From positions 9,658 through 73,657 of the forward strand of contig ONJB01000006.1 in NCBI GenBank assembly GCA_900318015.1: 64,000 nt of DNA, written 5' to 3'. This document shows positions 1 to 37,155 of the stretch, in pieces (position 1 is the stretch's first letter; each line of letters begins with the position of its first letter). The notes under the pieces were generated by a model, which made no database searches, was not told the origin of the DNA, and was given only the letters and a program-made list of their open reading frames with translations. The DNA is from an uncultured Bacteroidales bacterium (lineage in GTDB: Bacteria; Bacteroidota; Bacteroidia; Bacteroidales; UBA932). A program made the position numbers and the translations under genes.

Positions 1-1830
1 ATGGCGGACGCCCTGGTGGCGGTGGAGATCCTCGTAATCATACTTGCTCACGTCCGTCTGGAAACCCGCGAAGCTATCGCCCACGGGATCGTAGTCGTCG
101 ATGAGCATCGGCGCGCTGGAGAAGATGTTGGGCGCCGTGCTGTTGGAATAGAAGGTGCGCTGCTGGTCGACCGTCTTCCCTTTACCGTCCGAGGAAATCC
201 ATACCTTGCTTCCGTCGGTATAGACCGCCCCCTCGTTCTTCCAGTTGGGAACGCCGGTGGACATGATCGTATTGTTGGGCATGCAGGTCACATATTCCCC
301 GTCCACCTTCAGGACGATGGAAGTCGATTCGTAGCAGGCGTTCATCGCCACCACGGCCCCGTCATGGGCCTTGAACACGTCGGAGGTGCGCACATCCGGC
401 ACCGAGGAGGTGAACTTGAGCGCGTAGCCCGGCGCCGACATGTCCCAGTCGGCGATGAAGATACGCTGGGCGGCGCCGTCCACGTTACCTTCGAACCGGC
501 GGTAGGTCAAGCCGGGAGCCACTTCCTTGACAGTCCATCCCTTGTCCTCCGAACGGAACACGAACTGGTCCGTACGCGCCTTCAGGTAGGCCTTCACATC
601 GTTCCAGCGGTAGTACGGGAAGCCTTCCAGGTCACCCAGGTGCGCCTCTTCCCCATTGAGAAGAACCTTCACGAGGGTATCCCCGGACTTGCCTTTCTTC
701 GGATTGAAGAAGATGAACTGGATGTTGGCGGCCATCGGGGAGCGGAAGGTCTGGAACCAATAGACCAGGTCGTCCTGATGGGCCGGAGCCCGGTCGAAGC
801 CATCCAGGTCCATGATCAGCTCGAGCGCCATCACCACGTGGTCGTGGCCGTAGCGCAGGTCGGCGCCGCGGCTGCCGGCGGTCAGGCGCTGCGTTGCCTT
901 CTCCACCATATCATCCACAATGGACGAACAAGGCGTCCGGTAGGCGTGATACTCGCGGAAACGCTCGTAGTTGTCCGTCTCCCAGAGGGTCGCGAACTCC
1001 TCCACCGTGAAGAAGTCCTTCACGTCGATGCGCACGTCCTGCGGCAGGCTGTTCATGCCGGCCACGAACATGTACAGGTGGAAGAACACATTGTACGGAT
1101 TACGCTGTCCCAAGGCCTTGTCCGGATTCTTGAAGAAGCGGGCGAGAACGTCCTTGTAATTCGGGAAATGGCGGAGGAAGAACCGCTCGGAGCTCTCGGG
1201 ATAAGGGAATACCTCCTCGGGGCCCTGATACTTGAACGGGTTCGATCCCTGGTTGGGCCGCGTCGCCTGCACGTCCATAATCCCCTGGTGCTCATACACG
1301 GAAGTCTCCGGCGCCAGGCGGGAAAGGGCCGCGCAGCAGGAGGACATGCTCATGATGGAGCGGACCGAAGGCGAAGAGCAGGCATCGACGGAACTCCCCT
1401 TCCCGAACACGGTCGGGTAGTTCTTCACCATCGTCCGGGCAATCTCCTGGTGCTGGTTCCAGCCGATTTCGGTGAGGTCGCCCACGCGATACTGCACATA
1501 CTCCCAGAAAGGCTCCAGGTCGTTGAGCAGGCTTTCGCCGCGGGCGGTGAGGTTCCCCTCGCGCCGGCCTTCGGCAAGCATGTTCAGGATGATGGAATAG
1601 GCGTCTCCGGTATAGGCATACCGGGAGCCGTGGCGGCCGTAATGGCTGATATAGACGGCTTCATACCCCTTTGGAACAGGGGTCAAGGCCTTCGGGGACA
1701 GGTCCAGCAGACAATCCAGTCCAGAGGACTTGTTCCAGTCCGCACGCACTTCCTCCCGGACGCCGAGGCGCTGGGCGCCGGCCGTCAGGCAAAGGAACAG
1801 GGAAAGAGCCAGAATCAGGTGTTTTTTCAT
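1..1830 (-). CDS. Secreted histidine acid phosphatase fused to a C-terminal phosphodiester glycosidase (NAGPA/DUF2233-like) domain; 3' end runs off the window (not in the ORF track)
   Basis: Manual translation from ATG at 1830: MKKHLILALSLFLCLTAGA-Q signal peptide; HYGRHGSRY and YGHDHV phosphatase motifs. From about nt 540 it reads TGVPNWK...SSAPMLIDDYDPVG...HRHQGVRH, paralogous to the 3840-4904 protein just before its RHPRTA motif. No stop found down to nt 1. Confidence 0.82.
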   Translation of the reverse strand, partial: MKKHLILALSLFLCLTAGAQRLGVREEVRADWNKSSGLDCLLDLSPKALTPVPKGYEAVYISHYGRHGSRYAYTGDAYSIILNMLAEGRREGNLTARGESLLNDLEPFWEYVQYRVGDLTEIGWNQHQEIARTMVKNYPTVFGKGSSVDACSSPSVRSIMSMSSCCAALSRLAPETSVYEHQGIMDVQATRPNQGSNPFKYQGPEEVFPYPESSERFFLRHFPNYKDVLARFFKNPDKALGQRNPYNVFFHLYMFVAGMNSLPQDVRIDVKDFFTVEEFATLWETDNYERFREYHAYRTPCSSIVDDMVEKATQRLTAGSRGADLRYGHDHVVMALELIMDLDGFDRAPAHQDDLVYWFQTFRSPMAANIQFIFFNPKKGKSGDTLVKVLLNGEEAHLGDLEGFPYYRWNDVKAYLKARTDQFVFRSEDKGWTVKEVAPGLTYRRFEGNVDGAAQRIFIADWDMSAPGYALKFTSSVPDVRTSDVFKAHDGAVVAMNACYESTSIVLKVDGEYVTCMPNNTIMSTGVPNWKNEGAVYTDGSKVWISSDGKGKTVDQQRTFYSNSTAPNIFSSAPMLIDDYDPVGDSFAGFQTDVSKYDYEDLHRHQGVRH

Positions 1831-1842
1831 TTTTCAGTTTGG

Positions 1843-3135
1843 TCAAAAGGTTTCATACAAGTCGATGGCATGGGAGAACCGACGCTCCAGGTCGGCGAAC
1901 GGATAGAGGCCGTCGGCATTGGCCGAAAGACCTTCCAGGCGCAGCTGGAGCGCCATCGGAGGGTTGTCCGGGGAGAGGACGGACACCTCCCGGAGCTGGT
2001 CGGCGGAAGCATAGACGAGCCAGATGTCGGCATACAGTTTCCCGTCCCGTCCGCGGAACTTCTCGAAGAGGATTTTCCCGCCGATCGGGGTTTTCGTCTC
2101 GATGGCGCCGGGGGCGTCGTACGGCTCGGCTCCGAGCGCCGCGAGGACACTGCCGATGTTGGAGTCGTGGCCGCAGAGGAAGGCGAACTTTCGGCCGGGG
2201 GTCCGGAGTTCCGCCAGGAGTTCCTGCAGCATCGGGTGCGCCACGTTCGCGGCCACGCTGGGGGCGGCGAACAGAACCTCCTGGTACCAGTCTTTCACGG
2301 AGGAGAGTCCGGCCCATTCCTCCCGGGTCAGTTTGTGTCCGAACCCGGCTTTCAGCACATCCGGTTCCTCATAATACTGGAGCGTGAGGGCGTCCGAGGC
2401 CGAGCAGGCCATCTTCAAGCCGCCGGTCATGGCGGGCTCCTTGTTCAGTTCGAAACGGACGGCCGAGGGGAAGGCTCCGAACGTCGTCGTATCGTGTGCG
2501 GCCGCCGGACTGGACTTGATGTCCAGGACTTTCTCGAGCAGCGCGTACTTCGCCTTCAGCGGCCCGTCCGGACCGCCCATGGCGAAAATCTCCGCGTAAG
2601 CCTTCGTGATGAAACGGTCGGAAAGCCTGGTAATCTGGGGGTTGAATACGGGGTCCATCGTTCCCAGCGGCGTGTGCTGTTCCACGTCGATATCGGCCAT
2701 CGGGAACATCCCGGCGGCGAAAGCGCGGGCCGTAGCGCGGGTGCGCTGGATGGAATTGGCATAGAAGCGGACGCTGCCCGCTTCCGGGACGCCGTCCTTG
2801 GCGAAAAAGCCTTCACCCACGAGCCACTCCCGGAAGAACTGGCCCATTTCCATCTCGAGCGCGCCGCCCCGGAGTGACAACTCGCCGGGGGCGGAACTCC
2901 AGGCAAACCATTCATGCGGGGTAATCCGGGACAGCACGGATCCCGGTCCACTGATGGGCGAACGGATGTTGTGCCGACTCAGGATGACCATCTCCTCCCG
3001 CGCATAGCGGTCGGCGAAGCCGGCCGGGCGCGGCTGGAAGGCGGTGCCTTCAGAGGCAACGCTCCCGGGCGCCAGCCGGGGGCTGCAGGAGGCGAGCAGC
3101 AGAACCGCCGCCGCAAAGACAGACAACCGTTTCAT
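1843..3135 (-). CDS. Histidine acid phosphatase lipoprotein, Agp (glucose-1-phosphatase/phytase)-like
   Basis: Lipobox LLLASC; SRHNIRSP (RHxxRxP) and CGHDSNI motifs closely resemble those of E. coli Agp. Confidence 0.85.
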   Translation of the reverse strand: MKRLSVFAAAVLLLASCSPRLAPGSVASEGTAFQPRPAGFADRYAREEMVILSRHNIRSPISGPGSVLSRITPHEWFAWSSAPGELSLRGGALEMEMGQFFREWLVGEGFFAKDGVPEAGSVRFYANSIQRTRATARAFAAGMFPMADIDVEQHTPLGTMDPVFNPQITRLSDRFITKAYAEIFAMGGPDGPLKAKYALLEKVLDIKSSPAAAHDTTTFGAFPSAVRFELNKEPAMTGGLKMACSASDALTLQYYEEPDVLKAGFGHKLTREEWAGLSSVKDWYQEVLFAAPSVAANVAHPMLQELLAELRTPGRKFAFLCGHDSNIGSVLAALGAEPYDAPGAIETKTPIGGKILFEKFRGRDGKLYADIWLVYASADQLREVSVLSPDNPPMALQLRLEGLSANADGLYPFADLERRFSHAIDLYETF

Positions 3136-3836
3136 TATTTGGCGTTCTCTTGAAGTACTTTTTTCAGGATCGGGGTAATCACTTTCTCCATTTCCGTGTA
3201 CCCGGCGGCGTTGGGGTGGATGGAATCCTTCTGATACGCCTTCTTCAGGCCCAGTTCCTCATCCACCAGGACGGAATAGTAATCGGCATAAGCGATGCCG
3301 GCTTGGTCGGCCCAGGTCTTGATCATGCCATTGAGGACTGGGATATAGTCCTGCGGGCGGAAACCCGGGACCTTGGGAAAGCTGTTGGAGGGCGGTACCG
3401 ACCCGACGATGACCGGGATGCCGGCATCCCGGGCCAGCTTGGCCATCGATTTCAGCCGCTCGAGGATGGACTCGAGCGTCGTCGCGGCGATGTCATTGGT
3501 CCCGCCTTCGATGACGACGCAGTGCGGGTCCAGGTCGACGACATCCGCCTTGAAACGGGCCAGCATGTCACTCGTCTTGTTCCCGCTGATTCCCTTGTTC
3601 ACATAGTTGTTGGACGAGAAAAACGCGGGGTGGCCGACGCCCTGCCGCTCCCACTGCCAGGTGATGCTGTCGCCGATGAAGACGGCTACCGGCCCCTTGT
3701 GCCGGGTGTCGAGAACGAGCGGCGGCTCCGGTGGAGGCAGATCCGGCAGGTCCGGCGTCGGTCCCTTCCTGCAGGAAACCAGGAAGAGCGCCCCTGTAAG
3801 CAGGAGGAGCAGGGAAATGAATAATCGTCTCGACAC
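3135..3836 (-). CDS. SGNH/GDSL hydrolase lipoprotein (putative esterase/O-deacetylase)
   Basis: Lipobox FLVSC; blocks GDSIT, KGISG, GGTND and DSIHPN (catalytic S, G, N, D-x-x-H); GTG start. Confidence 0.85.
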   Translation of the reverse strand: MSRRLFISLLLLLTGALFLVSCRKGPTPDLPDLPPPEPPLVLDTRHKGPVAVFIGDSITWQWERQGVGHPAFFSSNNYVNKGISGNKTSDMLARFKADVVDLDPHCVVIEGGTNDIAATTLESILERLKSMAKLARDAGIPVIVGSVPPSNSFPKVPGFRPQDYIPVLNGMIKTWADQAGIAYADYYSVLVDEELGLKKAYQKDSIHPNAAGYTEMEKVITPILKKVLQENAK

Positions 3837-3839
3837 GGC

Positions 3840-4904
3840 TTACTGGGCTTCCAGGATAACGAAATGTGTATCCCGCGCACGCTGCTTGTCCTCCCGTCCG
3901 CCGGTGTCGCAAGGCTTGTTGACGACGTGTGTCTCCGAATTACCCAATCCTTCGACACACATCGCCGTGGAACCGCCGCCGTCCATATTCAGCGCGTACT
4001 GCGGGTTGAAGTACTTCACCAGGAACTGGGTCAGCTCCTTGGCCGACATGCCGTTGCTGATGTTGGTACGGCCGTCCACGACGAACAGGATGAGATGGTT
4101 GTCGTGCGTGAGGGCCACCGCCGTGCGGGGATGCCGCTTGCGCTGGTGATGCTGCGGATGTTCCGAGTTCAGACTGCTCCAGTTGTTGACGGAATTGTCG
4201 ATGAAGGTCTCCCCGACGGGGTTGTAGTCATCGAGCAACATCGGCGCGCTGGAAATGAGGTATTTGTCCGTGCGCTGCATGTAGAAGTTGCGCTGTTTCG
4301 TCACCAGGGCCTGGTAATCGTCGGGAGCCTTGTAGGGACGGATCAAGTCGCCTGCCTTCGTGATGCTGACATTCCGGACGCCGTCGCAGAAGAATGCGGC
4401 TTCGCTCTTCCAGTTGGGCACGCCGGTCGTCGAAATCTGCGTATTGGGAATGGCGGACTTGGTGGAACCGCCCACGCGGATGAAGATCGACCCGGCCTCA
4501 TAGCCGGCATTCACGGTCGCGATCGCGTGGTTGTTCTTATGGACATCGGACGTCACTGCAGCCGGCGACGTATAGGTCAGCGCGACGGTATACTTCGGGT
4601 TCGACAGGTCCAGGTCGACAGCGAAAGCCTCCTGGCTGACCCCGGTGACCACATCCTTGCCGGAATAGGCATAGTAGGTGATGCCTTCGCGGACTGACGA
4701 GACCGTCCAGCCGTTTCCGGAGTTCGGCCGGACCACCTTGCCGCGGTTCGCTTCCCAGGCGGGCGTTTCATCGCCACCGCCACCCTGCTCGCCGCCGGAA
4801 GGGCTCGGTGGCGGGGGAATCAGGTCGGGGTTGTCCTTCCCCCCGCAGGACCAGACCAGCAGGGGGAGGAAAACCGCGATGTAATAAAGGCTTCTGCGTT
4901 TCAT
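3840..4904 (-). CDS. Phosphodiester glycosidase family (NAGPA/DUF2233-like) lipoprotein
   Basis: Lipobox LVWSC, Pro/Gly linker, RHPRTAVA, VVDGR and ALNMDGGGS motifs typical of the family. Confidence 0.85.
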   Translation of the reverse strand: MKRRSLYYIAVFLPLLVWSCGGKDNPDLIPPPPSPSGGEQGGGGDETPAWEANRGKVVRPNSGNGWTVSSVREGITYYAYSGKDVVTGVSQEAFAVDLDLSNPKYTVALTYTSPAAVTSDVHKNNHAIATVNAGYEAGSIFIRVGGSTKSAIPNTQISTTGVPNWKSEAAFFCDGVRNVSITKAGDLIRPYKAPDDYQALVTKQRNFYMQRTDKYLISSAPMLLDDYNPVGETFIDNSVNNWSSLNSEHPQHHQRKRHPRTAVALTHDNHLILFVVDGRTNISNGMSAKELTQFLVKYFNPQYALNMDGGGSTAMCVEGLGNSETHVVNKPCDTGGREDKQRARDTHFVILEAQ

Positions 4905-4905
4905 G

Positions 4906-7038
4906 CTACTTCAGTTTCGGCAGGTCGGCGCTGAAGTCCCAGACATCGGCGCTCCAGCCCATCTCGACAGCCTTGGCGGAAAGGGTGCCTTCTGCGCCGA
5001 CGTAATTGTCCTTGACGTCCGCGGAACCGTCCTTGACCGCTCCGGCGAAAGGCAGGGAGGCATTCCAGCCGATACAGGAAGAGATGGCGGCGGTATTCAC
5101 GTCCACACTGCCGGCAAAGATACCGGTCTTGGCGTCCGTGCCGGTCACTTCCCCCGCGGCATAGCAGTTCGTCACGACGATCAGGCCCTTGGCGATGCCG
5201 ATGAAGCCGCCCACATTGGCCCGGCTGCCGCCTTCCACCTGGATGGTGGAGTAGCTGTCGGTAATCTGGCACTTCAGGGTGGCATTCCCCTCAGGATAGC
5301 CGGCAAAGCCGCCCACCTGGGTATTGCCCGCCGTAATGGTGCCGCCGATCACCGCGCACTTGCTGATGGCGGGGTGATAGTCGACGCCGACGAAACCGCC
5401 GGAGTTCTGGCCGCCGCTGATGGTCGCGTTCTCCACGACGCATTTGGTGATTACGGAGCCCTCGTGGCGTCCCGCCTGGCCGACGAAGCCACCGACACGC
5501 TTGGAAGAAGGGGCGTTGATGACGACGTCCTTCACCTGGCAGTTCTCGAAGACGGCCGCCTTGTTGATGTTGCCCGTGAAGCCGCCCACATACTGGATGG
5601 CGTTGGGAGAATTGACCGTGACACCGGTCACCGTACAGTTCTCGATACGGGCGCCGGCCGCATCCGGATACCCCATGAAACCACCGACATTGTTGGTGGT
5701 GCCGCCCGTGACCGTGCTGTTCTGGATGTGGCAGTCGGAAATGGTCGTCACTACGGCCACCTGCGCAACGACGCCGCCCATGGAACTCGTGCCGGTGACG
5801 GAAGAATTCTTCACGGTCACACCCGTCAGCGAGCACGGATACAGATTGGCGCTCGTACCCACATAACCAGCCACCACGCCCGTCTTGTTGCCACCGGCAT
5901 CGATCTTGGCGCCGTCAAAGGTGACGTCCTTGATCGTGCCGTACAGCACGCCGGCAAAACTGGCATACGAGGTCTCCCCTACCGTGAGGTTGGAAATGGT
6001 ATGTCCGGCGCCGTCGAAGTCGATGAACTTGTTGAAAGGATCGACGTTGTTCAGCGGCACCCAGTCGATGCCGGTCATGTCGATGTCGGCCCCCAGTTTC
6101 GCATACCGGATTGAACCTTCCGCGAGGTCGCCGGCCAGATAGGCCAGCTGCTCCGGCGTTTCGATGATCCAGGGAGCCGCCTTCGTCCCCTTGCCGCCGG
6201 CATAATGGGCGTTCTGGGCTTCGTCGGCCCAGCCGCCGCCGGCGAGGGTGAAGAGGTTCACCACGCCCGTCTCCAGGGTGGCCTTCTTCGAGAACAGCAC
6301 ATCCCGGCTGAGCAGCTTGTCGTTACCGCCCAGGACGACGTAGAGCGTCGCGCCGGAAGGCACCTCGGCCGCATTCCAGGAGGTATTGAACCAGGCCGTC
6401 AGGACGCCGTCTTCGGGCGTGCAGTCGGTCAGGTTGAGCTGGAGCTTGTCCGTCTTCTCCTCATCGCCGTTGCCTTTGTAGAAAAGGGGCGTATCGGCGG
6501 AGACGGCGATCGAAGCAGGTTCCGTGATTCCATCGGGCACCTCGACGGTGAGCTTCAGGACGCCGGTCTGCTTGAGGGTACCGGCATGCTCTGCGGCCCA
6601 CGCGGGGTCGAAGGCAAAGGTGAAATAGTCATCGACATTCTCGAGCGCCGCCTCATAACGGAGGTGAGCCAGGCTGTTGTTGCCCTTCTGGGTCTGGAGG
6701 CTCCAATCCGTCTCGAGGGCGTCCTGGCCGGGATAGAGGATGGTGAAGGTCTTGCCCTTGACGGGTCGGCCGACGAACTCGGCTTTCTTGGGCGAAAATC
6801 CTTCCTTGATCTTGAAGACCTCCGTGGTCTCACCGATGACAGTGATCTTGTCACCCGCATTCCAGGTCCAGGAAAGCTTCGTCTCCAGGCCGGCACCGCG
6901 CGTGGCGGGCGCGTCGGGGAGGATGGCGCTGATGGTCACCAGATCGTCCGGACCGGAAACCAGATCCGGTTCCACATCCTTACCGCAAGAGAAGACGAGG
7001 GCAAGGAGCGACAAGGCAAAGATGTATCTTGTTTTCAT
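4906..7038 (-). CDS. Surface lipoprotein with GLUG-like/parallel beta-helix repeats (putative substrate-binding accessory protein)
   Basis: Start reassigned to MKTRY (7038); lipobox LVFSC; repeated xGGFxG units in the C-terminal half; follows susD in the same orientation. Confidence 0.65.
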   Translation of the reverse strand: MKTRYIFALSLLALVFSCGKDVEPDLVSGPDDLVTISAILPDAPATRGAGLETKLSWTWNAGDKITVIGETTEVFKIKEGFSPKKAEFVGRPVKGKTFTILYPGQDALETDWSLQTQKGNNSLAHLRYEAALENVDDYFTFAFDPAWAAEHAGTLKQTGVLKLTVEVPDGITEPASIAVSADTPLFYKGNGDEEKTDKLQLNLTDCTPEDGVLTAWFNTSWNAAEVPSGATLYVVLGGNDKLLSRDVLFSKKATLETGVVNLFTLAGGGWADEAQNAHYAGGKGTKAAPWIIETPEQLAYLAGDLAEGSIRYAKLGADIDMTGIDWVPLNNVDPFNKFIDFDGAGHTISNLTVGETSYASFAGVLYGTIKDVTFDGAKIDAGGNKTGVVAGYVGTSANLYPCSLTGVTVKNSSVTGTSSMGGVVAQVAVVTTISDCHIQNSTVTGGTTNNVGGFMGYPDAAGARIENCTVTGVTVNSPNAIQYVGGFTGNINKAAVFENCQVKDVVINAPSSKRVGGFVGQAGRHEGSVITKCVVENATISGGQNSGGFVGVDYHPAISKCAVIGGTITAGNTQVGGFAGYPEGNATLKCQITDSYSTIQVEGGSRANVGGFIGIAKGLIVVTNCYAAGEVTGTDAKTGIFAGSVDVNTAAISSCIGWNASLPFAGAVKDGSADVKDNYVGAEGTLSAKAVEMGWSADVWDFSADLPKLK

Positions 7039-7052
7039 AATCTGATGCATTT

Positions 7053-8765
7053 TTAGTTGAAGAAGTCGTGTTCGGGATAGTCCGGGAGCTGGCCGCCGGC
7101 GTTGACGGTCTCATCATCACCACCGCCGGTTCCGGCCTTGAGGGTCGGGATCGGGCCGCTGAAATCCCACACGGAATCGCTCCAGCCCAGGGAACGGGCC
7201 AGGGAGGTGACGGTGGCGTCCGCAGGCGCCGCCAGACCATGGTACGCGAAGTCATAGGTGTTCGTGCCGCACACCAGCGGAGTGCCGGGACCGGCGTTCC
7301 CCTGGTTGGTGACCACGTACCCGAGCTCGGCGTTCTTCTCACACTCCGAGAATGCGATTCCGGCCTTGCGGAAGCAGTTGACCAGGAAATTCTGCGTCGC
7401 CGTGAAGCCGACGACGACACCGCTGCTGTAGTGCTCGGCCCCGTCCGTCGCCCGGGACTTGATTTCGTCATTCCAGGCGATACAGCCCTCGACATGGTTG
7501 TTGGGGGTGTTGGTACCGTTTGCATTCTTCTGGTCCAGGTTCGCATGACCGAGGATACCGGCATACTGGAAGGAGCCCTCGACCGTCATCAGCGAGAAGC
7601 AGTTGTACATGGCGGATTCGGCCTTGATGAAGCCGCCGCCGATACCGCCCACCTTGGAACCGGCCTTGACATGGCCCTTCGTCCAGCAATCGCTGACCGT
7701 GGAGGCACCCGTGTCATAACCGAAGAGGCCGCCCACGTAGTCCTCACCGCTCTCGATCTCCACATCGGCGGAGCAGGCGGTAATATTGGCGCCGCAGATA
7801 CGTCCGAAAAGGGCGCCCGTACCGTTCTTGTTACCACCCGGGGAAGTCACCCGGCCCTGGACATGGACGCGATGCGCTTCGCCAGCCTTCAGGACTCCGC
7901 TGACCGTCGTGCCGCAGTAACTGCCGATGATGCCGGTGGCGCCGCCAACGGCGCTCTCGATCACGGCATTCGCGAAAGTCACGTCGTGCACATTACCATA
8001 CAGCACGCCGAAGAAGCTCGGGTAGTTGGCGAAGGTGGACGTGAAGTTCGAGATCGTATGGCCGCCGCCGTCGAAGTCGATGCAGTTGTCGTAGGGCGAC
8101 GCGAAGTTGAGCGGGACCCAGTCGATGCCTTCCATGTCGATGTCGGCCTTCATGCGGAAATAGACCTTGGTCCCGGGGACCAGCAGCTCGGACATCTTCA
8201 GCATGTCCGCCGCCGTGTAGAGGTTGTACGGATCGTTCTTGGTGCCGGAACCGGCATCCGGGGCCACATAGGCCCGCTTGACGAGCACATAGGCATAAGG
8301 GGAAGAGGAGCGCTCCCAGTTGTCGGTACCGATCACCTCGTCGATGGTGACGGGGACCACGTAGATGACGTCTTCTTCCATGCCGGAAGCCGAAATCTTG
8401 AGTTTGGCCGAGGTGGATGCCTTGCCGTAGCGGGGCATCAGCACCTTGTTGGTCGTGAACTCATACGCCGAACCCGGGCACATCTGGTAGTTGGTGCCGT
8501 GGGTGCTGTTGTACGCAGCGGCGCCGTCAGGGTCGACCTTCAGCGTCAGGTTGAGGACGAGGTCCGAAACCGCTTCGGCATAGGCCTGCACGTCCACGGT
8601 CTTGCTCTTGCCGGGGACGATCTCGATGACTTCTTCAAGGTCCGGAGCGCCGGCATAGAACACGCCCTTCATCTGCGAAACGGGCGGCTGCGGCTCCTTT
8701 TCGCGGCAGGCCGTGAAGGCCAGCGCGAAGGAAAGGAGAAGGAGATAGGATATAATTCTTTTCAT
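7053..8765 (-). CDS. DUF1735 (BT_3987-N-like) lipoprotein with a C-terminal GLUG-like/beta-helix region
   Basis: Lipobox AFTAC; DLVLNLTLKVDPDGAAAYNSTHGTNYQMCP...YVVPVTI resembles DUF1735; typical SusE/F position directly after susD. Confidence 0.7.
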   Translation of the reverse strand: MKRIISYLLLLSFALAFTACREKEPQPPVSQMKGVFYAGAPDLEEVIEIVPGKSKTVDVQAYAEAVSDLVLNLTLKVDPDGAAAYNSTHGTNYQMCPGSAYEFTTNKVLMPRYGKASTSAKLKISASGMEEDVIYVVPVTIDEVIGTDNWERSSSPYAYVLVKRAYVAPDAGSGTKNDPYNLYTAADMLKMSELLVPGTKVYFRMKADIDMEGIDWVPLNFASPYDNCIDFDGGGHTISNFTSTFANYPSFFGVLYGNVHDVTFANAVIESAVGGATGIIGSYCGTTVSGVLKAGEAHRVHVQGRVTSPGGNKNGTGALFGRICGANITACSADVEIESGEDYVGGLFGYDTGASTVSDCWTKGHVKAGSKVGGIGGGFIKAESAMYNCFSLMTVEGSFQYAGILGHANLDQKNANGTNTPNNHVEGCIAWNDEIKSRATDGAEHYSSGVVVGFTATQNFLVNCFRKAGIAFSECEKNAELGYVVTNQGNAGPGTPLVCGTNTYDFAYHGLAAPADATVTSLARSLGWSDSVWDFSGPIPTLKAGTGGGDDETVNAGGQLPDYPEHDFFN

Positions 8766-8778
8766 GTTGCGGGTCCGT

Positions 8779-10581
8779 TTAGAATTTCAAACCGTCATTC
8801 CAGCCCGGGTTCTGGGTGAGCGCGCCTCCCGTGAGGTTGCGGTCGTCCGTCGGGATGGGATACAAGTAGTCCCTGTCTTCATTCCAGGTGCGGGAGACGT
8901 CGCTGTGCAGCAGGATCATGCCGGCGTCGCCGTCCTTGAGGATGACGTCGGAGCCGAGTTTCTTGGTCACCGCGGCGCTGGAGGTGGCGGAGGCGGCATA
9001 GACCTCGAAGTCGGCAGTTCCGTTACCATCCAGGTCATAGACGCCCACACCGGGGAGATACATGCCATAGAAAGGAGCCTCGAAGACCTTGCCTTCCTTC
9101 CAGCGCATCAGGTCGTAGTAACGGTGGCCTTCCTGGCAGAGTTCGATGGCGCGTTCGCGGCGGATCTCCAGGATGACACCCTTGTTGGCGTCGGCGGCGA
9201 GCACGGAGCTCTGGTAGCCGCCGAAAGCGGGATTGGTGAGAAAAGCGTCCGGATTGGCATTGGCATCGGCCAGGCTCAGGTGGGGCATGCCCACGCGGTC
9301 ACGCAACTTGTTGACGGACAGGTCCAGGTCTTCCTGCGTCAGGGTGCCTGCGTCGGCCAGGGCCTCGGCGTAGTTGAGCATGACCTCCGCGGCGCGGAAG
9401 ATGATCAGGTCGATGTCCGAGTTGTTGTAGGAATCCTGGTCCAGCGTGGTCACATACTTGTCCGGATGGTAGCCCGTGAAGGACACCTTCAGGTCGGGGG
9501 CCGTGAAGGTCTCCTGGTCCATGCGCTTGTAACCGGGGGTACGGATACTCTGCGCCAGGCGCGGGTCGCGGTCCTGGGTCTCCTGCTGAAAAGTCATCGT
9601 CTCCCAGCCGGCCTTGTCGGTGAAGCGGGAGCCGTCCTTCATCAGGTAGCTGGCCACCAGCTTGCGGGTCATGGCGGGGCAGCCCATCGAACCGACCGTC
9701 ATCGTGTTGCCGGAACTGTGGACGGCGCCGTACGCCTTGTTATAGTCGCGGGCGAGGATCACCTCGTCCATCAGGTCGGTGGCATTCATAGTGGTGAACA
9801 GTTCATGATAGCTCGTGTTCACGTCGCCGGAATGCAGGCCGTAACCGCTGGACTGGATGAACTCCAGGGAAACCTTGGCGCATTCGGCCAGATACCACTT
9901 GTAATCCTTGGCATTGGCAGGCAGGGTAGCCAGGGAGGCATCGCCTGCATGGTACTTCCGGTAAGTACCTTCGAACAAGAGGACGCGGGATTTCAGGGCC
10001 ATCGCCGTCCACTTGGTCACCTCATAGGCGCTCTTGGTGGTGGGGAGGTTCCCAATGGCAAAGTCCAAGTCTTCGATCATCTTCTCCATGATCAGCTCAC
10101 GGCTGTCGCGGGGCTTGTTGAGCAGCTCGGTGTCCGTGGAGCCGATGGGTTTGTCATACCACGGGACGTCGCCGAAGCGCTTGACCTTGGCGAAATAGAA
10201 GTAGGCGCGGAAGAAACGGGTAAGGGCCTCATAGTGGAGGCGGACCTGCTCGTCCGGGCAATTGCCGATGTTTTCGAGCAGGGTATTGATGTTGCGGAGG
10301 GCCGACCAGCTCCAACCGCTTCCGCTGGCCGGGATGGTCCGCTTGCCCATGCCCTCGTTGGACATGTTGTTCTGGGTGTAGTGGTCGTCGTTGGCCACAT
10401 ACAGGTCTGAACCGGGGAACAGCTCGTAGAAGCCGATGGAGTAGGCCTGGAGCTCACTCTCGCTCTTGAAGAACGTGTCGGCGGAAAGCCGGTCCTTGGG
10501 AACGGCGTCCAACAGGTCGTCGCAGCCGGTGAAAGCGAATCCGGCCAGGAGCATCAGTACGGGAATGATTATCTTTTTCAT
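8779..10581 (-). CDS. susD: SusD/RagB family nutrient-binding lipoprotein
   Basis: Lipobox AFTGC; RFFRAYFYFAKVKRFGDVPW, FRAAEVMLNYAEA, ILEIRRERAIELCQEGHRYYDLMRWK and C-terminal QNPGW; adjacent to susC. Confidence 0.93.
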   Translation of the reverse strand: MKKIIIPVLMLLAGFAFTGCDDLLDAVPKDRLSADTFFKSESELQAYSIGFYELFPGSDLYVANDDHYTQNNMSNEGMGKRTIPASGSGWSWSALRNINTLLENIGNCPDEQVRLHYEALTRFFRAYFYFAKVKRFGDVPWYDKPIGSTDTELLNKPRDSRELIMEKMIEDLDFAIGNLPTTKSAYEVTKWTAMALKSRVLLFEGTYRKYHAGDASLATLPANAKDYKWYLAECAKVSLEFIQSSGYGLHSGDVNTSYHELFTTMNATDLMDEVILARDYNKAYGAVHSSGNTMTVGSMGCPAMTRKLVASYLMKDGSRFTDKAGWETMTFQQETQDRDPRLAQSIRTPGYKRMDQETFTAPDLKVSFTGYHPDKYVTTLDQDSYNNSDIDLIIFRAAEVMLNYAEALADAGTLTQEDLDLSVNKLRDRVGMPHLSLADANANPDAFLTNPAFGGYQSSVLAADANKGVILEIRRERAIELCQEGHRYYDLMRWKEGKVFEAPFYGMYLPGVGVYDLDGNGTADFEVYAASATSSAAVTKKLGSDVILKDGDAGMILLHSDVSRTWNEDRDYLYPIPTDDRNLTGGALTQNPGWNDGLKF

Positions 10582-10592
10582 AGCGGGATTCA

Positions 10593-13500
10593 TTAAAGGG
10601 TGATGTCAATGCCGAAGACGTAGCTCTTCTGCCAGGGATAGATGCGCATGTTGCCGCCCGTCATGGCCATTTCAGGATCCACGTATCTGCCGTGCAGGCC
10701 GGGCGCCCAGAAGAACAGGTTTTCGCCGGTGAAATACAGACGGAGCTTAGAGATGGCGATCTTCTTGGTCAACTTCTCCGGAAGGGTGTAGCCGAAGGTG
10801 AGGTTCTTCAGACGCAGGTAGCCGATATTCTGCAGGTAGCGGTCGTTCACCACACCCAGGGGACGGTTCGCATTCATGGCGATATAGCCGCGGGGGCGCG
10901 GGAAGAAAGCGTTCGGATTCTCCTCGCTCCAGCAGTCGTTCAGGAAGTCCTTCGGGATGAAGGTCATGTAAGGACGGGCGTAGGGACCCCAGAAGTTACG
11001 GGCATCCGCAGCCGGATACCAGTCCATCTTGCCGATGCCCTGGAAGAAGACCGCAAGGTCGAAGCCGAACCAGGATGCGTTCAGGTTCACGCCATAGTTG
11101 TAGCGCGGCTTGCTGTTGCCGATGATCTGCCAGTCGCCGCTGTCACCCACCTTCTCGGCCCCCTTGTTGATGGCGCCGTCGCCGTCCAGGTCGGCGAACT
11201 TCATGTCGCCGGCGAAGAGGCCGTTCGGGAAAATCTGCGCGTCGTTCACCTTGCTCTGGTCCACGGCATAGCTCTTCGCTTCCTCGTCGGTGGCGAAAAG
11301 GCCGGCGATGTGGTAACCCCAGATGTCACCGTATTTCTGACCCTCCCAGTACGTCTTCGCGAAGAGCTTGTCCGGGTTGTTGAAGCGGGTGATGTGGGAC
11401 ACGTAATCGGAGAAGACCACGCTCACGCCGTAATGGAAGGATTCGGAGCCCAGCTTGAAGGCATCCCTCCAGCCCAGGGTGAGTTCATAACCCTTGGTAC
11501 GGAGGTCGGCCGTGTTCTCCTGCGGGGTGGAAGCGCCGTACACAGCCGGGAGAGGCTCACCGGCGGTGAGCATGTCCTTGGTGTCACGGATATAGCCTTC
11601 GGCACTGAATTCCAGGCGGTTACCCAGGAAGGCCAGGTCCACACCCAGGTTGCTCTGGAGGGAGCGCTCCCAGGTGAGGCCCGAGGAAACCGGGGCGGAC
11701 AGGGAGGCCTGCGGCAGGTTCGCGCCGCCCAGCAGGTAGGAGGACTTGCCGCTGGTGGAGACGGTCCGGATAGCCGGATAGTAGGAGCTCATCTGCTGGT
11801 TGCCCAGCTGGCCGTAGGAGAAGCGGATCTTGAAGTTGTCCCACCAGGTACGCAGCGGCGAGAAGAACGGCTCTTCGGACACTCTCCAACCCAGGGAAGC
11901 GGACGGGGAGAACACCCAGCGGCTGCCGCGGAGGAAGCGGGAAGAACCGTCGTAACGGCCGTTCAGCTCCAGCAGGTAGCGACCCTTGTAGTCATAGTTC
12001 AGACGGGCGAAGTAACCCGCGAGCTTGTACTCGTTCTGGCCACCGGAGGTTTCCATGCGCTTCTTGCCGTCCGGATCGTTAGGATCGGCGCCGATGAGGT
12101 TCTGGTCGTTCAGCTCCGTCGAATACAGGTAGTAACCGATGGCACCCAGGTCCTTGATCCAGCGGGTCTCGTAGTTCACGCCTGCCATCAGCTTGAGGTT
12201 GTGGGCCTTATTGAAGCTGTTCTCGTAGGTGGCGTACAGGTTGTAGGCCTGGTAGATATTGGTGTTGGCACTCTCGGAAAGCTTGTCCAGGAACGGGGAT
12301 GCGTCAGCCTTGGTCTCAACCACATTGGGGTACTTGGAATAGTAACCCGGCACCGCACGGTTCATGTAGCGGTTGTACTTGAGCGTGTAGGTGTAGTCGC
12401 CCTTGATGGTGAAACCCTTGAACGGCTTCAGGGTGAAGTCCACGGTCTCGCTCAGGTTGTCCACCTTGTCCTCGTTGAAGTTGTCCTCGGCGAGGAGCAT
12501 CAGGAGACCGTCCATGATCGTATATCCGTTGTACTTGGTGTAGTACAGGGAGGTACCGTCCGGATTCGTGGCGGGATAGCTCGCAAGGCCGTGGCCGGAG
12601 CTCTTCGCGAAATTGTTGTTGATGCCACCCTGGCCCGGATAGAAGTAGGAGCTGTTGAAGTAGCTCGTGTTGGAGCCGATCCGCAGCCAGTCGGTCACGT
12701 CGAAGGAGATCTTCGCGCGCAGGTTCACGCGCGAATAATTATCGGGCTTTTCCTTGAACATGCCCTGCTCGTACGTGTAACCGCCGGAGACCAGGTAGCT
12801 CACATGGTTGGTGGCGCCGCTGGCCGAGATGGTGTGGTTCGTGGTGGGCTTGACGTCATTGTACAGGACGTGCCACCAGTCCGTATTCGCGTAATAATTG
12901 TAGACGTCCTGGCCGTTCTCCTGCGTAATCACCACCCAGGGGCGCTCGGGATTCTCCACCTTGTCATTCCGCCGGGCCCACAGTTCCTGCATGTCCGCAT
13001 CGGAGTAGTTGGCATACTTGGTACCCGGGCTGTAGGTACCCCAGAAGAGGTTGTTCAGATAGACGGAGTCATAGCCGCGGCTCTCGTAGTCGGTCCGGGT
13101 AGTCGGAGCGGTGACGCCAAAGCGGCCGCTGTAGGAGACCTTGGCGCGGCCTTCCTTTTCCCGGCTGCCGTTCTTGGTGGTCACAAGGATCACGCCGGCC
13201 GAGCCGCGGGCGCCGTAGATGGCGGCCGCGGCGGCGTCCTTGATGACGGAGATGCTCTCCACGTCCACGGGGTTGACATACTGGATGTCACCTTCCACGC
13301 CGTCAATGAGGACGAGCGGGCTGCCCCCGTTGATGGAGTTCCAACCACGGATGTTGAGCGAGGCGGCCTGGCCGGGACGGCCGGAACCTGACGTGATGTT
13401 CAGGCCAGGGACGGTACCCTGCAGCATGTGGCCCACGTCCAGGGCGGAACGGTCCTTGAGTTCGTCGGCCTTCACCACGGAGACGGCGCCGGTGAGGTTT

Positions 13501-13844
13501 TCTTTCTTCTGGGTGCCGTAGCCCACGACCACGGCGTCTTCCAGGATATTCTGGTCCTCCTCAAGCACCACCAGGAGCTGGCGGCGGCCCTGGACGGGCA
13601 CCTGCTGCGACACATAGCCGAGGCAGGAAACTTCGAGGACAGCGTTGGGATCGACGCTGATGGAGAAGGATCCATCCGCGTCCGTTGTCACGCCGGTACT
13701 GCCGGAAAGCACGACGGCCCCGATGACGGGGCCATTGGCATCCGACACCGTACCGCGTACAGCAATCTTTTGGGCAAAGGCGCCAAAAGAGACGGTCATA
13801 CCGAGAAGTATGGCCAGTACGCTGAACAGTTTCTTGGATAACAT
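10593..13844 (-). CDS. susC: SusC/RagA family TonB-dependent transporter
   Basis: VVVGYGTQKKENLTGAVS, NPVDVESISVIKDAAAAAIYGARGSAGVILVTTK, RYDGSSRF, LRLKNLTFGYTLP and terminal FGIDITL. Confidence 0.96.
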   Translation of the reverse strand: MLSKKLFSVLAILLGMTVSFGAFAQKIAVRGTVSDANGPVIGAVVLSGSTGVTTDADGSFSISVDPNAVLEVSCLGYVSQQVPVQGRRQLLVVLEEDQNILEDAVVVGYGTQKKENLTGAVSVVKADELKDRSALDVGHMLQGTVPGLNITSGSGRPGQAASLNIRGWNSINGGSPLVLIDGVEGDIQYVNPVDVESISVIKDAAAAAIYGARGSAGVILVTTKNGSREKEGRAKVSYSGRFGVTAPTTRTDYESRGYDSVYLNNLFWGTYSPGTKYANYSDADMQELWARRNDKVENPERPWVVITQENGQDVYNYYANTDWWHVLYNDVKPTTNHTISASGATNHVSYLVSGGYTYEQGMFKEKPDNYSRVNLRAKISFDVTDWLRIGSNTSYFNSSYFYPGQGGINNNFAKSSGHGLASYPATNPDGTSLYYTKYNGYTIMDGLLMLLAEDNFNEDKVDNLSETVDFTLKPFKGFTIKGDYTYTLKYNRYMNRAVPGYYSKYPNVVETKADASPFLDKLSESANTNIYQAYNLYATYENSFNKAHNLKLMAGVNYETRWIKDLGAIGYYLYSTELNDQNLIGADPNDPDGKKRMETSGGQNEYKLAGYFARLNYDYKGRYLLELNGRYDGSSRFLRGSRWVFSPSASLGWRVSEEPFFSPLRTWWDNFKIRFSYGQLGNQQMSSYYPAIRTVSTSGKSSYLLGGANLPQASLSAPVSSGLTWERSLQSNLGVDLAFLGNRLEFSAEGYIRDTKDMLTAGEPLPAVYGASTPQENTADLRTKGYELTLGWRDAFKLGSESFHYGVSVVFSDYVSHITRFNNPDKLFAKTYWEGQKYGDIWGYHIAGLFATDEEAKSYAVDQSKVNDAQIFPNGLFAGDMKFADLDGDGAINKGAEKVGDSGDWQIIGNSKPRYNYGVNLNASWFGFDLAVFFQGIGKMDWYPAADARNFWGPYARPYMTFIPKDFLNDCWSEENPNAFFPRPRGYIAMNANRPLGVVNDRYLQNIGYLRLKNLTFGYTLPEKLTKKIAISKLRLYFTGENLFFWAPGLHGRYVDPEMAMTGGNMRIYPWQKSYVFGIDITL

Positions 13845-13878
13845 ATGAGTATGGTTAAAAGTGAATTTGCGGTCAACA

Positions 13879-13886
13879 CAAAGTTA
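13879..13886 (-). promoter_or_regulatory. Bacteroidota -7 promoter box for susC
   Basis: Reverse complement reads TAACTTTG, matching TAnnTTTG, about 35 nt upstream of the susC ATG. Confidence 0.7.
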
Positions 13887-13920
13887 TGCATTCTCGGGGA
13901 AAAAAGGGCGGCCGCTCCGG

Positions 13921-14010
13921 AAATAGTAGATGTCCCGCGGGCTTCAACCCAAACAAATCATTGATAATCAAGAATAACCAAAACAATCCATCCCCCTTAA
14001 ATAGTAGATG
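13921..14010. repeat. Exact 12-bp direct repeat AAATAGTAGATG, 78-bp period; candidate regulator binding sites
   Basis: Copies at 13921-13932 and 13999-14010 in the susC/regulator divergent intergenic region. Confidence 0.6.
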
Positions 14011-14039
14011 GAATCGTTGGATTAAAACGGGATTCTTCG

Positions 14040-14047
14040 TATTTTTG
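14040..14047 (+). promoter_or_regulatory. Bacteroidota -7 promoter box for the regulator gene
   Basis: TATTTTTG matches TAnnTTTG, 24 nt upstream of ATG 14072. Confidence 0.6.
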
Positions 14048-14071
14048 TCCCGGTATCAAGCGCTTCTTACC

Positions 14072-15682
14072 ATGCGTCCTGCGTTTCTTCCGCTGCTCGC
14101 GGCCTGCCTCCTTCTCCTCCTTCCCGCCTGCCGGGACGGAAAGGACCGTACCCCGGAATGGGAGACCGCCCTGCGGGAACTGGACCGGTCCCTGGCCCAG
14201 GAAGCCCGCCTCAGCCAGATGCTCGTCGCGAACCTGGCGGACTTGAAAATCCAGTTCAAGCACGCGGCCTCCCCCCGCGCCCGCTACCGCTACTGCGACC
14301 GGATCTTCGACGGATACCTCAAGTACGATGTGGACTCCGCCCTCCGGTATGCGCACCTGAAGGACGCGATCGCCTCGGAGGTGGGCGACCCGGAACTCCG
14401 GCTGGACGCCGCCCTGGACCTCGCCCAGCGCTACCTGATCTCCGGGATGTACCATACCGCCCTCGAAGCGGTCCAGGCCGTCGACACGGCTGCGGCCGTT
14501 TCTCCCGGCCGGTTCGCGGCCTATTACCAGACCCTCAACTCCATCTACCACGGCATGGCCCTGGCGGCCAAGGACCCGGAACTGTCCGCCAGGTTCCGCG
14601 CGCAGGAACTGCTGTACCAGCGGCGCAGCCGGGCGCTGCTCACGGAAGACATGCTGGACTATTACACGGTCAATGCCGACATCGAAATCGAGAACGGGCA
14701 CCCGGAGCGGGCGCGGGAACTGATGAACAACCGGCTCGCCGACGAGCGCCTCTCCCTCCAGGACCAGGCTATCGCACACTATTGGATCGCCAAGACCTAC
14801 CGGGAGGAAGGAGACCGCGAGAACGAACTGAAGCATTACGCCATCAGCGCGAACTGCGACCAGCTGGCCCCGGTGAAGGCGTCCCGGTCCCTGATCCGCC
14901 TGTCCCGGATCCTGTTCGAACGCGGAGACCTGGACCGCGCCTACACCTACATCGTCCGGGCCTATGAGGACGCCACCCGGTCCGACGCCCGCACCGCCCT
15001 GGACGAGATCAACCAGTCGCAGCCCGGCATCATCGCCTCCTATGAAAAGCTGGAACAACGCCGCCAGCGACAACTGAAGGGCTTCCTGGCCGTCACCATC
15101 CTGATCCTGGCCGCCCTGGGCTTCGCCCTCCTGCGCCTCTACCGCAACCACAAGCGGATCGGCCGGATGCAGCGGCAGATCCTGGAGAACGTGGAGCGGC
15201 TCAAGGAATCGAACCAGATCAAGGATACCTACCTGGGCCGCTACCTGTCCATGTTCTCCGAACACATCGACGCCCTGGAGCGTTACCGGTCCGGACTCCG
15301 GGTCACGGCCAAGTCCAAGGACCTGGATGACATCCTCCGCGTCCTCAAGTCGGACGCGTACATCGACACGGAACGGAAAACCCTGTATGACGAATTCGAC
15401 GCCACCTTCCTGGGCGTGTTCCCGGATTTCGTGAATCAGCTGAACGGCCTCCTGCGGGAAGAGGCCCGCATCGGGCAGGACCTGCCGCCCGGAAAGCTCT
15501 CCAACGAACTCCGCATCTTCGCGCTCATCCGCCTTGGCGTCACCGAATCGGCCCAGATCGCCCGGTTCCTGAAGAAATCACCCTCCACCATCTACAACTA
15601 CCGCGTCAAACTGCGGAACGCCGCGGCCTGCGACCGCGACGAATTCGAGAAAAGGTTGATGGAGATCGGGAATCCGGGATAG
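14072..15682 (+). CDS. SusR-like membrane-spanning transcriptional regulator (TPR-like sensor, TM helix, DUF6377/HTH)
   Basis: Start reassigned to MRPAFLPLL; helical TPR-like region; TM segment LKGFLAVTILILAALGFALL; C-terminal FDATFLGVFPDFV...ELRIFALIRLGVTESAQIARFLKKSPSTIYNYRVKLRN. Divergent from susC. Confidence 0.85.
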   Translation: MRPAFLPLLAACLLLLLPACRDGKDRTPEWETALRELDRSLAQEARLSQMLVANLADLKIQFKHAASPRARYRYCDRIFDGYLKYDVDSALRYAHLKDAIASEVGDPELRLDAALDLAQRYLISGMYHTALEAVQAVDTAAAVSPGRFAAYYQTLNSIYHGMALAAKDPELSARFRAQELLYQRRSRALLTEDMLDYYTVNADIEIENGHPERARELMNNRLADERLSLQDQAIAHYWIAKTYREEGDRENELKHYAISANCDQLAPVKASRSLIRLSRILFERGDLDRAYTYIVRAYEDATRSDARTALDEINQSQPGIIASYEKLEQRRQRQLKGFLAVTILILAALGFALLRLYRNHKRIGRMQRQILENVERLKESNQIKDTYLGRYLSMFSEHIDALERYRSGLRVTAKSKDLDDILRVLKSDAYIDTERKTLYDEFDATFLGVFPDFVNQLNGLLREEARIGQDLPPGKLSNELRIFALIRLGVTESAQIARFLKKSPSTIYNYRVKLRNAAACDRDEFEKRLMEIGNPG

Positions 15683-26615: not shown

Positions 26616-26617
26616 CC

Positions 26618-32718: not shown

Positions 32719-32772
32719 GGCCGTTTTCTCTTTTTTGCAAAGTTCGGGAAGGGAAAAGAAAAGGGTAGCATG

Positions 32773-32814: not shown

Positions 32815-32853
32815 ACTTTTTGAGGCCGGACCGCAAAAAATGCGTATCTTCGT

Positions 32854-33432: not shown

Positions 33433-33445
33433 CACAAAACGCGAT

Positions 33446-37152: not shown

Positions 37153-37155
37153 ACG

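Follow-up and report, generated by a model that had tools for sequence, protein, structure and literature searches.

The 64,000-nt window analysed here, positions 9658 to 73657 of contig C47 in a 3.2-Mb, 62% G+C assembly of an uncultured Bacteroidales bacterium of the herbivore gut (rumen type), carries at its left end a SusC/SusD operon whose enzymes are three phosphatases, an esterase, and two predicted phosphodiester glycosidases of the 'uncovering-enzyme' type. We read it as a SusR-regulated, Sus-like operon that probably serves an extracellular glycopolymer bridged by sugar-1-phosphate and bearing O-acyl groups. Teichoic-acid-like, cell-wall, or capsular polymers of mainly Gram-positive gut neighbours are our tentative candidates for the natural substrate. 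Roughly half of all SusC/D loci lack any known carbohydrate-active enzyme (CAZyme), and for most of these the cargo has yet to be established (PMC6499787). Loci of this CAZyme-free kind that carry phosphoesterases already form a recognised class (PMC6499787; the Pus systems discussed below). The locus family described here offers a testable answer for one such class, in which glycan breakdown would proceed by cutting sugar-1-phosphate bridges and not the usual glycosidic bonds.

Genes were identified by open reading frame (ORF) calling guided by third-codon-position G+C (GC3), together with hidden Markov model (HMM) searches, in the window and in the 9.6 kb of contig retrieved to its left. Nine tightly packed genes run on the minus strand from susC to a gene for an EEP-family lipoprotein (Table 1), with intergenic gaps of -8 to +13 nt. 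susC and susD are co-oriented and adjacent, with a 1-nt overlap, and all nine products carry a signal peptide or lipobox as read from their sequences. The eight genes named in the initial annotation were all located on this strand by the HMM searches. That annotation had also held that the operon continues past nt 1 and that no classical glycoside hydrolase (GH) or polysaccharide lyase (PL) gene is visible, and the retrieved sequence bears out both statements, adding one gene, the EEP phosphoesterase, and no conventional GH. The finding that the annotation named as refuting its reading, conventional GHs further along the operon, thus does not arise. The fusion gene at the window edge has the first 610 of its 702 codons inside the window and ends 278 nt to the left of it, where its stop codon is overlapped by the ATG of the EEP gene by 8 nt, as ATGAATAA. 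Beyond the EEP gene lies a convergent U32 peptidase gene, followed by genes for a polyprenyl synthase and for efflux; given this convergent neighbour, the operon ends without a GH or PL. A classical GH concealed left of the window is thus ruled out. Not one of the nine operon genes matches a GH, PL, or carbohydrate esterase (CE) Pfam family, so the operon lacks the CAZy enzyme expected of a Sus-like polysaccharide utilization locus (PUL).

Two of the operon's enzymes contain a NAGPA/DUF2233 domain, that of a glycosidase which, to our knowledge, lies outside CAZy. The two domains score 85.2 and 90.1 bits against PF09992, for which the cut-off is 25 bits. The NAGPA lipoprotein matches PDB entries 6PKI and 3OHG at about 5e-6 and has an acidic segment after its lipobox cysteine (C-GGKDNPD), making it a candidate surface enzyme, while the second domain occupies residues about 510-700 of the fusion (PF09992 E 2.5e-25; 3OHG 2.8e-7). 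In human NAGPA, the DGGGS loop is strictly invariant and essential, and holds the catalytic Asp (D286) and sugar-phosphate contacts, with R316, 30 residues past D286, and T260 as phosphate-binding residues (PMC13474241). Human E226 and T227 read the N-acetyl group and so account for GlcNAc specificity. The loop is present at residues 308-312 of the lipoprotein and at 661 of the fusion, where it is invariant across 11 fusion homologues. R691 of the fusion (D661+30), likewise invariant among 11 homologues, and R337 of the lipoprotein (D308+29) would correspond to R316, with VDGRT (lipoprotein) and VDGRR (fusion) in the putative T260 region; these equivalences were assigned by spacing and partial HMMER alignment, not by superposition. 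The NAGPA-like identity first proposed for both proteins is well supported by the PF09992 matches and the preserved DGGGS loop, to which a candidate phosphate-binding Arg at, or one residue short of, the spacing of R316 may be added. They share the domain and the loop, and perhaps this Arg, with vertebrate NAGPA and with B. ovatus BACOVA_00430 (3OHG), and PDB sequence searches matched them directly to 6PKI/6PKG/6PKU and to 3OHG. Identity to these proteins is very low (hits at 1e-3 to 1e-7, in the C-terminal domain half only), and here the domain is part of a lipoprotein or fused to a histidine acid phosphatase (HAP), or in relatives to a GLUG protein, within a nutrient-uptake operon. A third NAGPA gene lies elsewhere in the same genome (C51:126692-127249).

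The N-terminal part of the fusion (residues 49-425) is a HAP with bacterial MINPP phytases as its nearest relatives, matching PDB entry 7R5Y at 4.4e-39 and BtMinpp (4FDT/5CX4) at about 1e-30, with the catalytic motifs RHGSR (RHGSRYA) and GHDH. The second HAP is Agp-like, matching 1NT4/3NTL at about 1e-73 versus about 1e-37 for AppA phytases, with the motifs RHNIRSP and GHDS. Both therefore retain the nucleophile (RHGxR, within RHGxRxP) and the HD proton donor, in agreement with the earlier description of an Agp-like histidine phosphatase and a phosphatase-NAGPA fusion. Full-length homology, the RHG and HD motifs, and a periplasmic or secreted location are shared with BtMinpp and with E. coli Agp (1NT4). 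What differs is the setting, as both phosphatases here belong to a SusC/D operon and the MINPP-like domain is joined to a glycosidase, in either order across species, or to an EEP domain. The EEP protein has the Mg-binding and catalytic set expected of its fold (N32, E63, D180, N182, D245, and H246), none of which varies across 18 homologues. No sequence-level PDB match was found for this protein; its AlphaFold2 (AF2) model, with a predicted local distance difference test (pLDDT) score of 85.8, has its top fold matches with BT3783 (3MPR/4C1R; E about 1e-15, template modelling score about 0.7).

The strongest evidence that these proteins act on one substrate comes from repeated, independent domain fusions in related loci, here numbered L002 onwards. 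The HAP-NAGPA order of the window also occurs in L011 and L014, and the reverse, NAGPA-HAP, is found as a single ORF in L012, L014, L016, and L018. Two further proteins (P0104 and P0114), present in several independent assemblies, are 657-aa HAP-EEP fusions that have lost both the signal peptide of the EEP protein and the whole NAGPA domain; they correspond to window positions 550-1830 plus C47:8619-9320, and their HAP is 93-96% identical to that of the window. GLUG-NAGPA fusions occur in L012 and in a genome of the same genus, G154, and GLUG-SGNH fusions in L005, L009, and G154, the SGNH domain being orthologous to the operon's esterase. Three tandem NAGPA genes accompany a NAGPA-HAP fusion in L016, and genomes that carry the locus have 2-7 NAGPA genes each. 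Such fusions tie the binding protein to the esterase, the phosphodiester glycosidase, and the phosphatases as probable partners on a common substrate, and together they map which activities cooperate.

Synteny points in the same direction. A core of SusC/D, DUF1735/GLUG, NAGPA, SGNH, HAP/NAGPA, and EEP genes is conserved across other species. In L007, whose fusion is 79% identical, the gene order is identical; L002 (84%) has an extra GLUG paralogue and lacks the Agp-like gene; and L008 (63%), L022, and L014 also carry the operon. With this order found again in other species whose fusion is 63-84% identical, the gene set is far from a chance assembly, and the initial suggestion that these enzymes work together gains support from both the fusions and the conserved synteny. 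The operon of G154 extends over 27 kb with four further GLUG paralogues and no GH. Homologues of the fusion number in the thousands, nearly all from metagenome-assembled genomes (MAGs) labelled 'Bacteroidales bacterium' from rumen, omasum, and herbivore faeces. The contig scan behind this comparison used phosphatase-domain peptide patterns, and most of the 80 loci it returned are stand-alone MINPP-like phosphatases, which are uninformative about the PUL. Of 151 genomes sampled from the GTDB family, only 2, both in the same genus, have a homologue of the NAGPA lipoprotein, and the locus is thus a patchy accessory trait and not a lineage marker.

Substrate capture would fall to SusD and two GLUG-type lipoproteins. 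SusD has only distant relatives in the PDB (best 3QNK, at 8.6e-17), with no close solved homologue. The shorter GLUG-type protein begins with a DUF1735 domain, which matches the N-domain of Endo-F1/BT3987-type enzymes at 1e-3, and its residues 171-381 match PDB 3N6Z (E 2.8e-23). The 714-aa GLUG lipoprotein also matches 3N6Z (E 1.2e-19), and its AF2 model (pLDDT 89.4) combines an adhesin/pilin-like N-terminal part with a long right-handed beta-helix; fold matches include 3N6Z, the non-catalytic beta-helix domain of IgA1 protease, BF1858/Mfa2-like adhesins, and, weakly, phage tailspikes. HMM, PDB, and fold searches revealed no recognisable catalytic domain in either protein, and both are probably surface glycan-binding proteins. 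Two enzymatic identities were rejected. The DUF1735 protein is not a BT3987-like GH18 endo-N-acetylglucosaminidase, as only its N-terminal DUF1735 matches, the remainder is a GLUG beta-helix, and a GH18 domain was not found. Nor are the GLUG proteins IgA1-type proteases, as the name of 3N6Z might imply, since the likeness is confined to the non-catalytic beta-helix and a peptidase domain is absent. Conceivably, the GLUG beta-helix proteins represent a surface-protein class of a new kind that binds polymers or, like tailspikes, even cuts them.

Gene content in related operons offers hints about the substrate. An OPA-family organophosphate:phosphate antiporter of the GlpT/UhpT/PgtP type (E about 1e-65) is encoded in the operons of L009, L012, and G154, and a GDPD/DUF4996 glycerophosphodiesterase gene directly follows the fusion in L003/L004. 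L009 and L011 contain a GH78 alpha-L-rhamnosidase, L005 and L023 a GH97, and tandem PaeX-like acetyl esterases also occur in related operons. Sugar-1-phosphate bridges, glycerol-phosphate, rhamnose, alpha-glucose or alpha-galactose, and O-acyl groups are features of Gram-positive wall teichoic acids and of phosphodiester-bridged or -anchored wall and capsular polysaccharides, and the rumen is phosphate-replete and holds abundant Gram-positive biomass. The additional genes fit phosphodiester-bridged, acylated heteroglycans such as teichoic-type polymers, and in this respect they strengthen the phospho-glycan interpretation made before relatives were compared.

The sequences show which genes are present, that the catalytic motifs are intact, that the products carry export signals, how the operon is built, and that it is conserved and its parts fused in relatives; from this we infer a possible order of steps, the location of the enzymes, and the kind of substrate. 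The polymer would be captured at the cell surface by SusD and the two GLUG lipoproteins. The SGNH esterase would strip acyl groups and so aid the lipoprotein NAGPA, which would cleave the glycosidic C1-O bond of sugar-1-phosphate bridges, allowing uncapping or depolymerisation without a classical GH or PL. SusC would import the resulting phosphorylated oligosaccharides, and in the periplasm the soluble HAP-NAGPA fusion would first take off any more sugar caps and next the phosphomonoester that this exposes. Remaining glycan or sugar phosphomonoesters would be cleared by the EEP enzyme, free sugar-1-phosphate would be the substrate of the Agp-like enzyme, and glycosidases encoded elsewhere would finish the neutral sugars, with the SusR-type regulator sensing a product. 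As to placement, the NAGPA, GLUG, DUF1735, and EEP lipoproteins have acidic residues right after the lipobox cysteine, which favours surface exposure in Bacteroidota, so these four are predicted to be surface-exposed and the fusion to be a soluble periplasmic protein. It is conceivable, and we suggest it with reserve, that NAGPA/DUF2233 is a non-CAZy PUL depolymerase that cuts the backbone or the peptidoglycan anchor of Gram-positive envelope polymers, with the fused phosphatase finishing the cuts, and that rumen and gut Bacteroidales could thereby live on the teichoic-acid-type, cell-wall, and capsular polymers of their neighbours.

Several points weigh against this interpretation. The sole Bacteroides DUF2233 protein to have been assayed, by Das et al. 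in 2013, was reportedly weak on N-acetylglucosamine (GlcNAc)-P-mannose (Man). The fused phosphatase appears nearest to inositol-polyphosphate phosphatases, and the fold match of the EEP model hardly sets BT3783 apart from other family members, TDP2, sphingomyelinase, and nocturnin lying within 2-3 log units of it in the same search. The placement of enzymes at the surface or in the periplasm is read from lipoboxes alone. The GDPD, antiporter, GH78, and GH97 genes occur in relatives only and not in the window operon; orthologues of the relatives' extra genes sit elsewhere in the same genome, several of them on contig C56. Finally, a mannoside-catabolic gene cluster lies 10 kb from the operon, and G154 has two GH92 genes, a phosphomannose isomerase gene, and a GH130 gene directly beside the susR of its locus.

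The last of these points speaks for a phosphorylated mannan or N-glycan as the target (Man-1-P-6-Man decorations of fungi or yeasts, or GlcNAc-1-P-6-Man on high-mannose N-glycans), which NAGPA would uncap, the EEP enzyme and HAP would free of Man-6-phosphate, and the GH92/GH125/GH130 cluster would digest. The kinship of the DUF1735 domain with the N-domain of BT3987/Endo-F1 N-glycan enzymes and the fold match between the EEP model and the mannosyl-6-phosphatase BT3783 are consistent with this possibility, and vertebrate NAGPA acts on exactly GlcNAc-1-P-6-Man (PMC13474241). On the other hand, in the window the two clusters are parted by housekeeping genes (S41 peptidase, Ham1, RecO, dehydrogenase, and RNase R). 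Of five locus-carrying genomes from other genera, three lack orthologues of the GH125 and GH130 genes and two have them on other contigs, an argument weakened by MAG incompleteness. An obligatory tie to the GH92/GH125/GH130 cluster as a general rule is nonetheless ruled out by their absence or unlinking in these five genomes. In addition, no related operon contains a mannosidase, GH18, GH76, or GH99, and the genes found there are instead the GH78, GH97, GDPD, and GlpT-like antiporter genes described above. Taken together, we consider a phosphomannan target unlikely, though the best of the alternatives.

Alternatively, in line with the inositol phosphates that the initial annotation named as another substrate, the operon could be a system for organophosphorus uptake, taking up inositol phosphates, phytate products, or inositol phosphoglycans released from plant glycosylinositol phosphorylceramide (GIPC) or glycosylphosphatidylinositol (GPI) lipids. 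Its chief enzymes would then be the two histidine phosphatases, MINPP-like and Agp-like, and the gain would be phosphorus or inositol. The BtMinpp match of the fusion points this way, the Agp family includes inositol-phosphatase activity according to the name of NF007553, the genome encodes six further MINPP-like paralogues, and herbivores take in much phytate and GIPC with their feed. There is also a precedent in the PusCD1/2 systems of F. johnsoniae, SusCD-like pairs that, with phosphoesterases and no CAZymes, import inositol monophosphate (IP1) and glycerophosphoinositol (GroPI) (Lidbury et al., PMC8115612; Connolly et al. 2026 preprint, 10.64898/2026.09.03.749221). Such a role would leave the two motif-intact NAGPA domains hard to place, as no other enzymes of the locus family are so well conserved or so frequently duplicated or fused, and inositol phosphate esters offer NAGPA no anomeric C1-O-P bond. 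The large GLUG beta-helix surface proteins and the SGNH and acetyl esterases point to an acylated glycan of polymeric nature, none of the solved SusD homologues is closely related to this SusD, the linked regulator is of the SusR type and not PhoBR, and the rumen is not phosphate-limited. We therefore regard this explanation as improbable, and more so than the phosphomannan one.

The regulator itself bears on the glycopolymer reading. The dedicated regulator expected of a Sus-like PUL is present as a divergent SusR-family (DUF6377) gene, and a sugar-sensing rather than Pho-type regulator counts in favour of a glycan. It scores 397 bits against the SusR_regulator model NF058541 (E 1.3e-118), below the 480-bit equivalog cut-off, so that the assignment is at family level only. 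Its start is likely at 14072, with a signal- or anchor-like N terminus (MRPAFLPLL) as read from the sequence, which leaves a 227-nt control region between susC and susR. Two exact copies of CATCTACTATTT, 78 nt apart on the susC strand, are candidate binding sites of the regulator. Closer to susC is a putative -7 promoter box, TAACTTTG; it fits TAnnTTTG, which from general knowledge of Bacteroides promoters we take to be the Bacteroidota -7 consensus. The regulator of the G154 locus (G154:C8:37426-38970), which is followed by GH130, is only 41% identical to the window product of 14072-15682, unlike SusC and SusD, which are 76% and 72% identical between the two genomes; the regulator may have been exchanged.

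Comparison with characterised systems helps to place the operon. In the yeast-mannan PULs of B. thetaiotaomicron (MAN-PUL1/2), the GH38 BT3774 cuts Man-1-phosphate and the EEP phosphatase BT3783/BT2630 removes the phosphate (Cuskin et al. 2015, PMC4978465). The overall design is alike, with a SusC/SusD pair, surface lipoproteins, and a dedicated regulator in one co-oriented operon, and the same two-step logic of a sugar-1-phosphate cut followed by phosphate removal may apply here; BT3783 is also the top structural match of our EEP protein. In contrast, the present operon has no CAZy GH or PL, and NAGPA/DUF2233 appears to take the sugar-1-phosphate-cleaving role. Phospho-chemistry is its whole enzyme set, whereas in MAN-PUL1/2 it is accessory to about 20 mannanases, and the regulator is of the SusR type instead of a hybrid two-component system (HTCS) or extracytoplasmic function (ECF) sigma factor. 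The PusCD1-4 clusters resemble it in pairing SusCD-like proteins with phosphoesterases (phosphomono- and diesterases in Pus) without CAZymes, and some of them, like relatives of the present operon, also encode organophosphate transporters and lipoproteins of the beta-helix ('pectin-lyase-fold') kind. The Pus systems differ in being Pho-regulated, phosphorus-scavenging systems of soil and plant bacteria with PI-PLC, calcineurin-like, and PhoA types of enzymes, as opposed to the SusR-type regulator, NAGPA, histidine acid phosphatases, and SGNH esterase found here in bacteria of phosphate-rich herbivore guts. The Pus authors themselves propose inositol phosphoglycans as possible cargo (10.64898/2026.09.03.749221).

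In the literature searched, we found no characterised PUL that contains NAGPA/DUF2233 and no published uptake system for sugar-1-phosphate-bridged polymers. Should NAGPA prove to be the depolymerase suggested above, the operon would be the earliest example of a defined system for taking up bacterial glycopolymers with phosphodiester bridges, and bacterial relatives of the lysosomal uncovering enzyme would for the first time have a physiological role. Were the substrate a teichoic-type or cell-wall polymer, the operon would represent a route for recycling bacterial necromass in the rumen and gut. The enzymes might also serve as tools for uncapping or releasing phosphodiester-linked glycans and for the analysis of teichoic acids, phosphomannans, and Man-6-P glycans.

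The right-hand part of the window brings in one more candidate function, the scavenging of nucleic acids or other non-glycan phosphodiesters, in which the EEP protein would be a nuclease and the phosphatases would serve as nucleotidases. Lapebie et al. described 576 CAZyme-free SusC/D loci with phosphodiesterases and suggested nucleic-acid targets for them (PMC6499787), the EEP superfamily includes nucleases, and a separate nuclease/TonB-dependent receptor cluster occupies the same window. That cluster, at 46343-64000, looks like an extracellular nucleic-acid uptake locus from its gene content, and it is there, not in the operon, that genes of the NucA/EndA-type nuclease, OB-fold, and BACON-nuclease kinds are located. 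Nucleic acids would give no role to NAGPA, the SGNH esterase, or the sugar-1-phosphatase homologue, and the best fold match of the EEP protein is a sugar phosphatase, which makes this function for the operon highly implausible.

Table 1. Features of the operon and its control region, of other clusters in the window, and of phosphatase paralogues in the same genome. Coordinates refer to the window unless a contig or locus is named.
Feature	Coordinates	Strand	Evidence or content
SusC-type TonB-dependent transporter, 1083 aa	10593..13844	-	TIGR04056 E 6.5e-259; Plug, barrel, CarboxypepD_reg domains
SusD-family surface lipoprotein, 604 aa	8779..10593	-	PF07980 E 1.5e-48; PF14322; lipobox FTGC-DD
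DUF1735 (BT_3987-N-like) + GLUG-type beta-helix lipoprotein, 570 aa	7053..8765	-	PF08522 E 2.2e-13
GLUG lipoprotein, 714 aa, probable start 7038	4906..7050	-	PF07581 E 6.8e-19
NAGPA/DUF2233 phosphodiester glycosidase lipoprotein (predicted), 354 aa	3840..4904	-	PF09992 E 8e-24
SGNH/GDSL esterase lipoprotein, 233 aa	3135..3836	-	PF13472 E 2.2e-28
Branch-2 histidine acid phosphatase lipoprotein, Agp-like, 430 aa	1843..3135	-	NF007553 E 3.9e-96
MINPP-like histidine acid phosphatase::NAGPA fusion, 702 aa	1..1830 in window; full ORF L001:9379-11487	-	PDB and PF09992 matches
EEP-family lipoprotein, 255 aa, last operon gene	C47:8619-9386 = window -1038..-271	-	PF03372 E 7.7e-21
SusR-family (DUF6377) regulator, divergent from susC	14072..15682 (ORF open from 13886)	+	PF19904 E 7.3e-62; NF058541
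CATCTACTATTT, 12-nt direct repeat, upstream copy	13999..14010	-	read directly
CATCTACTATTT, 12-nt direct repeat, promoter-proximal copy	13921..13932	-	read directly
TAACTTTG, candidate -7 promoter box	13879..13886	-	35 nt 5' of susC ATG; fits TAnnTTTG
Mannoside/N-glycan cluster, SusC/D-less	24309-44265	+	GH3, GH2, GH92, GH125, GH92, GH130, FGE-sulfatase-like+BNR fusion, GH92, ROK kinase, phosphomannose isomerase
Nuclease/TonB-dependent receptor cluster	46343-56266 and on to 64000	-	DUF5689 lipoprotein, SusD-less TonB-dependent receptor, Exo_endo_phos_3, BACON-NucA nuclease, 1223-aa OB-fold (tRNA_anti-codon) repeat protein
MINPP-like histidine phosphatase paralogues, own genome	C12:6279-7511; C57:14930-16180; C43:60428-62924 (two); C82:24429-25703; C92:245476-246606		29-38% identity to the fusion's N-domain

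Some further features of the window and genome were also noted. The mannoside cluster is interrupted by a small divergent gene pair at 32017-33432. At 18768-21998 on the plus strand, a single 1076-aa chain joins 2Fe-2S, Pyr_redox_2, 4Fe-4S dicluster, BFD-like 2Fe-2S, and DAO domains, giving a fused dehydrogenase of a multi-subunit type. Contig C56 (positions 50075-92009, covering L089-L091) holds a 40-kb co-oriented, SusC/D-less cluster of glycosidases and phosphoesterases, which includes orthologues of the GH78, GH97, and GDPD genes found in the NAGPA loci of relatives. On the glycosidase side it encodes a GH92 that also has PA14 and an apiosidase-like domain, a GH127, a GH43 with CBM6, three GH78-type enzymes, a GH2 with a ricin domain, a GH27, and a GH97; the phosphoesterases comprise a fusion of the WbsX-like::GDPD::DUF4996 type together with a type-I phosphodiesterase and a metallophosphatase of the purple-acid type.

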